Part shown: positions 59,387-60,045 of the stretch, piece by piece | Layout of the letters: every line of letters begins with the position of its first letter | Numbering within the stretch: position 1 is the first letter of the stretch | Origin: Bilabrum cf. latius | Taxonomy: Eukaryota | DNA: 64,000 bases | Assembly (NCBI GenBank): GCA_965178125.1 | Contig: OZ237735.1 | Span: 124,001 to 188,000 of the forward strand | Reading direction: 5' to 3' | The notes under the pieces: model-generated | Database searches by the model: none | What the model was told of the DNA's origin: nothing | What the model saw: the letters and a program-made list of their open reading frames with translations, nothing else | Translations under genes and position numbers: made by a program

Positions 59387-60045
59387 TCACGAAGATGCCC
59401 CCTTTACTTGCTCAGTCAGCCAATCGAAGCCCTCGATGAGCCCCATGCCCTCTGTGGCACTCGTCCCCTGTATGCTCCACTATCGCCCCTTGATGGAGCC
59501 CAGGTCCAGGGCCTCGCTGACCTCCTCCGCTGACATGGCCTTCGGCAGGTCCTACTTGTTCGCAAATACCAACAATATGGCGTCCTTCAGGTCGTGTTCG
59601 TCCAGCATGGCAGTGAGTTCTGCCTTTGCTTCATCAATCCGGTCCGTATCGGCGCTGTCAACAACAAAAATAATCGCGTCCGTCTCCGGATAGTAACACC
59701 GCCAGTACGGTCGAATGTTCGTCTAGCCTCCGAGATCCCACACTTGGAACTAGATATTACGATACGTCAAAGTCTCGACATTGAAACCTGCGGGAACATC
59801 GCAAAAATGAAGGAGTGGCGATGCACGAGAGCTTGGCAGCCCTGCAGCTGGCACCCGCGAGAACGACCAAAGCACGGCGACTTACCTATTGTCGGCACGG
59901 TGGTAACGGGCTCGTCAACCTACAGCCTGAATAGAATTGTAGTCTTGCCAGCTCCATCGAGTCCAAGGATTAGGATTCGAACCTCTTTTGAGCCGAACAG
60001 CTTGTCGAATACACCGCCAATCAGGCGACTGAAAAAGGAGCCCAT
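59387..60045 (-). CDS. ARL1: ARF-like GTPase ARL1, 186 aa; intron 59885-59788
   Basis: [98 protein letters not shown]. Absent from the ORF track because of five TAG; TGA stop. Confidence 0.96.

Follow-up and report, generated by a model that had tools for sequence, protein, structure and literature searches.

What does the triplet TAG mean in a gene where it occupies the place of the catalytic glutamine of a small GTPase? The question is raised by an ARL1 gene on the minus strand of a 64,000-nucleotide stretch of contig OZ237735.1 (assembly GCA_965178125.1, positions 124,001 to 188,000), deposited under the name Bilabrum cf. latius. The whole of this stretch is called the window in the following, and all coordinates refer to it; the ARL1 gene spans positions 59387-60045. 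Under the standard code its reading frame is full of stops. An initial annotation, made from the sequence alone, had proposed that UAG is read as glutamine in the entire nuclear genome of this organism. Our analysis supports the glutamine interpretation through invariant glutamine columns in alignments, spliced transcripts, the lack of TAG terminators, and exchanges between glutamine and stop in relatives, and its genome-wide reach is an extrapolation from 64 kb. That UAG is a sense codon is practically certain, and that it stands for glutamine is very probable. We are likewise confident that the best explanation as a whole combines UAG = Gln with UGA as the working terminator and with UAA as a probably rare stop.

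Structure and identity of the ARL1 gene

The ARL1 gene consists of two exons. Exon 1 (59886-60045) holds 53 codons and the first base of a split glycine codon, begins with Met-Gly, contains the P-loop and matches the Pfam family Arf (2.4e-13). It is followed by an intron of 98 nt with GT..AG ends (59788-59885) and by exon 2 (59390-59787), which supplies the last two bases of the split codon and 132 further codons (Pfam Arf, 2.8e-52) and runs into a TGA terminator (59387-59389). This model confirms the 186 codons counted in the initial annotation, and the five in-frame TAGs lie exactly where it had placed them. TAG 1 (59920-59922) belongs to the RLxV motif of exon 1. In exon 2, TAG 2 (59750-59752) precedes TAG 3 at the switch-II catalytic glutamine of the WDLGGx motif (59723-59725), TAG 4 at the glutamine of NKxD (59552-59554), and TAG 5 (59480-59482). 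The count of three ordinary glutamine codons (CAA or CAG, together CAR) was also correct, with one CAG and two CAA.

With its Arf-family G motifs (P-loop, switch II, NKxD) and its N-terminal Met-Gly, the predicted protein has the common Arf-family fold signature of the solved ARL1 proteins (rat 1r4a; human 1upt, 4dcn and 5j5c; yeast 1moz), from which it differs in that five of its eight glutamine positions are written TAG. Rat ARL1 (1r4a, E = 1.5e-49), the best solved relative, can be aligned gap-free with 128 residues of exon 2, and ARF1 chains are nearly as good (3lrp, 3.6e-49). The subfamily was assigned by best likeness to ARL1, so that the protein is a probable ARL1, a call over ARF1 that rests on best matches and on the switch-II flank and not on a tree. 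The nearest environmental homologues, at 66-68% identity, are named ARL1 by JGI.

Residues opposite TAG in homologous proteins

For the alignments, TAG was read as X, and the counts given here are those of the non-gap homologue stretches opposite each X. The ARL1 columns were built from the best 150 representative ARF-family proteins of 19,091 matches (E <=0.001), obtained from a library of 1.84 billion proteins that was searched in full. Seven TAG columns were testable in all, five of them in ARL1 and two in phospholipase D (PLD), whose frame on the plus strand (1-5907) is open at the left end of the window, contains five TAGs and ends with TGA.

The initial annotation had pointed out that TAG falls on the switch-II and NKxD glutamines, and this proved correct: the switch-II column (TAG 3) holds glutamine in 151 of 161 stretches and the NKxD column (TAG 4) in 159 of 163. 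When aligned with solved structures, the X of NKxD stands opposite glutamine in all four (4/4), and the X of switch II stands opposite glutamine in 1r4a and opposite leucine in 5j5c, 1upt and 4dcn, a leucine that we take to be the engineered GTP-locked form. Glutamine is the sole residue that appears in the listed counts of all five ARL1 TAG columns, and homology continues across the TAGs within single domains of both ARL1 and PLD. A lack of glutamine enrichment in the TAG columns had been named as a ground for rejecting the interpretation; what we found is that the conserved columns are glutamine columns.

As far as the alignments go, the assignment to glutamine depends mainly on ARL1. The single TAG of RRP40 falls outside the aligned part and gives no column, and the DCP1 exon, with its TAG in LRxKD, had no match among solved structures. 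The TAG at 27699 that had been noticed within a glutamine tract is present; it lies in a Gln/Met tract of a Gln-rich protein frame (26619-27728, plus strand) that has four TAGs in total and a TGA stop.

TAG codons and terminators across the window

The GC content of the window ranges from 58 to 70% (about 64%), and long spurious open reading frames (ORFs) are abundant in it. Frames were chosen by their coding signature, that is, a GC fraction near 0.5 at second codon positions (GC2) and near 0.8 at third positions (GC3), or by homology. The 11 frames supported in this way belong to 10 genes and comprise 12,363 codons, among which 47 TAG, no TAA and no TGA are found in frame. In its two off frames this DNA contains 119 TAG, 47 TAA and 339 TGA; there TGA outnumbers TAG by a factor of 2.8, yet only TAG occurs in frame. 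Nine of the 10 supported genes carry at least one in-frame TAG, and TAG accounts for 8% of the glutamine codons in the supported frames. When TAG is read as sense, the three longest frames reach 3372, 2541 and 1968 codons, against at most 841 under the standard code. All 12 genes with a placeable end are terminated by TGA, and neither TAG (0/12) nor TAA (0/12) serves as a terminator; ending at TAG, which would have spoken for a stop, was thus seen in no gene.

Further TAGs lie in less certain frames, with four each in those of DCP1, an HhH-GPD-like protein and FtsJ, two in that of an exonuclease, and more in others. The earlier figure of about 70 TAGs in 17 of 20 genes was not reproduced exactly, the supported genes giving the numbers stated above, and it is plausible given the TAGs in the less certain frames.

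These counts bear on two alternatives. Decay of the genes into pseudogenes would also create TGA and TAA, which are absent in frame despite the excess of TGA over TAG in the off frames. Leaky readthrough of UAG by near-cognate tRNAs, without a true reassignment, would have to cope with 47 TAGs in nine of 10 genes, 17 of them in one frame, and would leave almost no full-length product.

In ARL1, the TAG share of glutamine codons (five of eight) exceeds the 8% of the supported frames with P ~2e-4, a value uncorrected for the choice of ARL1 as the most striking gene. The GC3 of ARL1 is low (0.65), and a cathepsin B-like gene with a GC3 of 0.89 and a high transcript depth is devoid of TAG. The use of TAG may be lower where expression or GC3 is higher.

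Transcript evidence

Part of the region was found in 13 public runs from eight studies, of which the DNA runs X1-X4 contain the window almost completely, and the contigs of four of these runs (X1, X5, X6 and X7, from three studies) were compared over positions 47,000-64,000. Run X1, from which the window sequence probably derives, contains one unspliced contig of 26.8 kb over 47,000-61,224 and is DNA-like, with a nearly flat depth of about 10-15 in 28 of 30 bins and depths of 6 and 3,467 in the other two, at the repeat-rich right end. The contigs of X5, X6 and X7, which come from two studies other than that of X1, leave out the 98-nt ARL1 intron precisely, match both ARL1 exons with 0 other letters and keep all five TAGs. 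Of 15 joints listed, 11 have intron-like ends; 10 of these occur in more than one of X5, X6 and X7, one in X5 alone, and none in X1. Because of these intron-skipping joints and of uneven depth, which in X5 varies from 4 to 446, we read X5-X7 as transcript-bearing.

No differing letters were reported anywhere in the 17 kb (47,000-64,000) in the four runs. All nine TAGs that lie in supported frames to the right of position 47,000 (9/9) are covered by contig pieces of X5-X7. Among them are the three TAGs (57500, 57350 and 57278) in the main exon of a DDX27-type DEAD-box helicase (54752-57718, minus strand, TGA stop, with a 5' intron at 57719-57817), which are likewise kept in the contigs of these runs. 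Messenger RNAs with CAG at the TAG sites had been named as an outcome that would speak against the interpretation, and the spliced contigs show TAG. Since they do, neither assembly error nor hidden introns nor editing to CAG can account for the TAGs of these genes.

In-frame stops in a single assembly are a default cause for worry, and assembly or sequencing error, editing to CAG, unrecognised introns or pseudogenes would be the usual suspects. Nothing positive speaks for any of them. The window is matched by contigs of four runs from three studies, the spliced contigs remove the 98-nt intron of ARL1 and nothing else, and the alignments to solved ARL1 structures are free of gaps across the TAGs. 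We regard the probability of artefact or decay as negligible.

The runs that contain the same sequence with 0 differences bear at least three different organism labels, and protist and algae metagenome runs contain smaller shares of it, which suggests that the organism occurs in the company of others, in culture or in samples.

Exchanges between glutamine and stop in relatives

Proteins of close relatives, as they stand in public collections, were compared with two frames of the window. The first is that of an FtsH-type AAA/M41 protease (21612-24146, plus strand, TGA stop), which has two TAGs in its N-terminal part. Two 98%-identical protease proteins of relatives begin at the first methionine past the window TAG at 22122, and two protease fragments of 77 residues (ENA, JGI) end exactly where the window goes on with glutamine. 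A scan of metagenomes for sequences close to the protease returned four distant loci only, at 28-40% identity.

The second is a giant frame of 3,372 codons with a CH-like domain (36714-46832, minus strand), which contains 17 TAG, 0 TAA and 0 TGA and ends with TGA. In one relative the corresponding protein is split into P0415 (window residues 1757-2204), P0414 (2216-2825) and P0417 (2847-3372), with 88-92% identity to the window. Both internal breaks (2/2) fall exactly at a window CAG: P0415 ends at residue 2205 (40218-40220), the next fragment resuming 11 codons on, and P0414 ends at residue 2826 (38355-38357). At a CAG frequency of 0.029 the chance of this coincidence is about 8e-4. A second relative (P0418) reads glutamine straight through residue 2826. 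Three window TAGs are spanned by relatives, and the one at residue 2268 (40029-40031), in a perfectly conserved context, stands opposite glutamine in both spanning relatives. Ordinary glutamines of the window are kept in 31 of 34 cases in P0414 and P0415 together, in 39 of 41 in P0418 and in 22 of 22 in P0417.

The proteins of the relatives behave as expected if TAG = Gln and are in this respect independent support for the assignment. They also illustrate a prediction of the initial annotation, namely that standard-code annotation would fragment the genes, in that these public proteins start or end at the sites in question.

The giant frame itself is a single exon. Close to its N-terminus lies its sole domain, which is CH-like ('sperm protein'; Pfam CH_2, 1.5e-06). 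It also has long tracts of two kinds, coiled-coil-like ones of Arg/Glu/Ala and others of Lys/Gly, and its C-terminal 480 residues have a distant homologue at 45-48% identity (ENA).

Weighing of the glutamine assignment

Several observations count against the assignment of UAG to glutamine, or take something from the evidence given above. Three of the ARL1 columns are not dominated by glutamine. The variable column of TAG 2 holds S 74, K 32, N 31 and Q 6 (glutamine in 6 of 159 stretches), and the equally variable column of TAG 5 holds N 59, H 37, Q 28 and K 17 (28 of about 160). The column of TAG 1 is dominated by lysine in the ARF family, with K 82, Q 13 and 5 others per 100 stretches; in the closest ARL1-like matches it holds Q 4, K 2 and P 1. 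The earlier statement that TAG occupies the glutamine of an RLQV motif typical of ARL1 therefore holds as to the presence of TAG and as to four of the seven closest matches, and fails for the family as a whole. In PLD, the TAG in HHxK (3214) stands opposite glutamate in three chains, including human PLD1/2, and opposite glutamine in 7v53, and the TAG in PRxPWHD (3424) stands opposite methionine in all four PLD chains listed. The HHxK site had been cited as agreeing with glutamine; TAG is present there, and the site is undiagnostic. The PLD columns thus neither prove glutamine nor contradict it.

In the relatives, the remaining two spanned TAGs stand opposite serine and alanine, the alanine in a variable stretch. 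The serine could be encoded by TCG, one step from TAG, and the two non-glutamine cases of three are compatible with TAG at less constrained positions. Moreover, the relatives were seen as public standard-code predicted proteins and not as DNA, so that TAG as the stop at their break points is an inference. On the side of the transcripts, X5 carries the label 'probably DNA', X6 and X7 are RNA by guess, and no run is recorded as RNA. As to the codon counts, the frames were selected to be free of TGA and TAA, and the zero count of TGA is thus partly built in; what does not depend on the selection is how long the frames run (up to 3,372 codons) and that homology continues across the TAGs. A test of the gain in ORF length when a stop is read as sense was dropped, because TGA is the commonest stop triplet and reading it as sense also lengthens the ORFs. 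Finally, UAA is found neither in frame (0 in 12,363 codons) nor as a terminator (0/12).

The residues listed above (K, S, N, H, E and M in homologues, S and A in close relatives) would suit a UAG that encodes another amino acid, and variants in which UAG means leucine or serine exist, according to the available text of PMC5304391 and PMC11687900. Such a meaning is hard to reconcile with the function of one small essential GTPase whose switch-II and NKxD glutamines, conserved in 151 of 161 and 159 of 163 stretches, would both be replaced, and with the exchange of TAG or an in-frame stop for glutamine at three homologous sites in relatives. Taken together with the leaky readthrough discussed above, an amino acid other than glutamine is very improbable.

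Meaning of UAA and proposed mechanism

The meaning of UAA, on which the initial annotation was silent, decides which of the known code variants applies. The share of CAA among CAR codons in the same frames is 0.147 (76:442 CAA:CAG), from which about eight in-frame TAA would be expected if UAA also encoded glutamine; none was seen (P ~6e-4). The TAAs that appear when TGA is taken as the sole stop lie upstream of starts or within introns. Because no in-frame TAA was found against about eight expected, the UAG-only subtype is favoured over one in which UAA and UAG (UAR) are both glutamine, and we consider it the likelier outcome that UAG alone was reassigned, with UAA as a rarely used stop.

The other arrangement, that of NCBI table 6, would have UAA and UAG both as glutamine and UGA as the sole stop, with UAA rare in coding sequence owing to the GC-rich genome. 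It would fit the termination of all 12 genes by UGA and of none by UAA, and in the known variants one of UAA and UAG hardly ever changes without the other, as stated in the available text of PMC5304391. The absence of in-frame TAA beside 47 TAG in 12,363 codons speaks against it, and the lack of TAA among the 12 terminators is, by an estimate that was not computed, unsurprising at such a GC content even if TAA is a stop. We consider a table 6 type code unlikely here.

If UAG alone is glutamine, the code would be of the 'decoupled' table-15 type, with UGA as the working terminator and UAA probably still a rarely used stop. By analogy with other such lineages, UAG would be read by a tRNA-Gln with the anticodon CUA, one base from tRNA-Gln(CUG) and unable to pair with UAA. 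The release factor eRF1, with an N-domain expected to be altered in the GTS, NIKS and YxCxxxF region, would have lost or weakened its recognition of UAG, and glutaminyl-tRNA synthetase would accept the new anticodon. Most new TAG codons would stem from CAG by a C-to-T change. This scheme is modelled on the account given for Iotanema, which, in the available text of PMC5304391, combines tRNA-Gln(CUA), an eRF1 with reduced affinity for UAG, and acceptance by the synthetase. No tRNA genes were found in the window, an Rfam scan of it returned no matches, and the genes of eRF1 and of the synthetase lie outside it.

Placement of the organism

The window belongs to the nuclear genome of a GC-rich (~64%), intron-poor unicellular eukaryote. 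Its nuclear nature shows in its housekeeping genes, in spliceosomal introns that measure 84-154 nt, and in X1 contigs of up to 212 kb. The closest relatives of its proteins are environmental sequences. Among named organisms, Cafeteria comes closest in the protease (56%), and green algae, fungi and animals are at about 50-52%. In the helicase the closest is Cantina marsupialis (52%), followed by Phytophthora (51%), and land plants reach 51-52% as well. A single-gene tree of 24 rows, obtained by a quick search only and with the window on a long branch, places the window in a set of 15 rows with Cantina and Phytophthora (Shimodaira-Hasegawa-like approximate likelihood ratio test, SH-aLRT, 95). 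Plants, an amoebozoan, two metagenome rows and an MMETSP transcript fall outside this set. These likenesses give a weak pointer to a deep heterotrophic stramenopile, a placement on which we are evenly divided.

Other genes and features of the window

Two further supported frames on the plus strand carry five TAGs each and end with TGA. A frame of 1,147 codons (17701-21144) has coding composition and no Pfam match. The other, of 2,541 codons (29007-36632), encodes a predicted surface protein with several thrombospondin type-1 repeats, an EGF-like stretch and a membrane anchor at the C-terminus; it is unusual in being so large and free of introns. RRP40, with S1 and KH domains (60350-61219, plus strand), has its one TAG at 60362 and a TGA stop. 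Its frame is open far upstream (59534-60340, plus strand), antisense to ARL1, where there is no homology, and this upstream part is probably non-coding; it is a reminder that open frames in GC-rich DNA do not show genes.

DCP1 was confirmed by Pfam (4.7e-15), and further genes of the window encode a 3'-5' exonuclease and an FtsJ methyltransferase. The cathepsin B-like protease and a TRAPP/Bet3-like protein were recognised from transcript joints. A frame of 660 codons (62020-63999, minus strand) has neither a Pfam match nor a TAG; its nearest neighbours in a protein atlas are VPS9-domain clusters (score 0.91, with low recognition), a lead only.

The window also contains several repeats. A satellite of 5.7 kb (9933-15637) consists of 46.2 copies of a 123-bp tandem repeat with 97% identity; A is in strong excess over T there (the AT skew reaches 0.46), and both strands have long spurious ORFs. 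The stretch from RRP40 to the next gene contains two near-perfect minisatellites, at 61195-61465 (53 bp x 5.1) and 61582-62041 (57 bp x 8.1). The one at 61195 starts just before the RRP40 stop, and the X1 contig breaks here (61224 to 62012). At the right edge (63443-64000), where the depth in X1 rises from about 11 to about 3,467, GAGCCA is repeated 12.7 times (63830-63905) and there are many loose contig ends; this is probably a high-copy repeat.

Comparison with known code variants and significance

There are few departures from the standard code in nuclear genomes, and those in which UAG changes without UAA are reported, in the available text of PMC5304391 and PMC11687900, from Iotanema, Protocruzia, some phyllopharyngeans, a rhizarian and Scotinosphaera. 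In Iotanema spirale (Metamonada: Fornicata), nuclear UAG is glutamine and UAA is kept as a stop (PMC5304391). To judge from the same text, the window resembles Iotanema in that UAG = Gln, UAA is unseen as a sense codon and the meanings of the two codons are decoupled, and the same machinery would be expected. It differs in its terminator, which is UGA in 12 of 12 genes and UAA in none, whereas UAA is the primary terminator of Iotanema. It is also GC-rich and, if the stramenopile hint is right, belongs to a different supergroup. Iotanema is known, as far as that text goes, from a transcriptome only, whereas the window comes from genomic DNA and is accompanied by transcript contigs.

Among ciliates, UAG alone has become glutamine in Protocruzia tuzeti and in two phyllopharyngean lineages, as given in the available text of PMC11687900. 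The codon, the amino acid and the unreassigned UAA are those of the window. These organisms are ciliates with macronuclear genomes, whereas the contigs of the window are long and carry several genes, its spliceosomal introns measure 84-154 nt, its GC content is 64% and its nearest named relatives are stramenopiles. The table 6 type, in which UAA and UAG are both glutamine, is listed for ciliates, Dasycladales/Cladophorales/Trentepohliales, hexamitids, Amoeboaphelidium and oxymonads in the available text of PMC5304391 and PMC2984419. It shares with the window UAG = Gln and UGA as the sole terminator seen, and the window is unlike it in having no in-frame TAA where about eight would be expected. 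Where UAG alone has changed elsewhere, the excerpts at hand give leucine for the rhizarian exLh (PMC5304391) and serine for Scotinosphaera (PMC11687900); the reassigned codon is that of the window, and the amino acid differs, being glutamine in the window by its invariant columns and by the exchanges in relatives.

No nuclear code variant in stramenopiles was found in the literature, most subscription journals lying outside the search. The works on bicosoecids or Bigyra, in the parts available, deal with organelle genomes or with standard-code assemblies. UAG = Gln is already a known kind of change, and it appears to be unreported for the probable group of this organism; a description of this code may exist or be on its way, as the runs with the window sequence date from 2025. 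That we have here the first nuclear code change in stramenopiles, a decoupled one (UAG = Gln, UAA not) in a genome of 64% GC with UGA as the sole working terminator, is a tentative proposal that we hold to be possible rather than probable.

For practical work, standard-code gene calling has already put truncated proteins of this organism or its relatives into public collections, such as a protease that starts past a TAG and a giant protein in pieces, and it would miss ARL1 outright, as the initial annotation had anticipated. Annotation, phylogenomic matrices and metagenome binning that involve this organism need TAG = Gln.

If the proposal is true, it would be an independent origin in a supergroup and in a base-composition regime without a described case, and the changes in the tRNA, eRF1 and glutaminyl-tRNA synthetase would be readable from runs of DNA and transcripts that are already public. 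With every independent origin it can be tested whether one and the same route was taken again, that of a mutation of tRNA-Gln(CUG) to CUA together with a weakening of eRF1, and a GC-rich lineage beyond ciliates and metamonads would widen the conditions known for that route.

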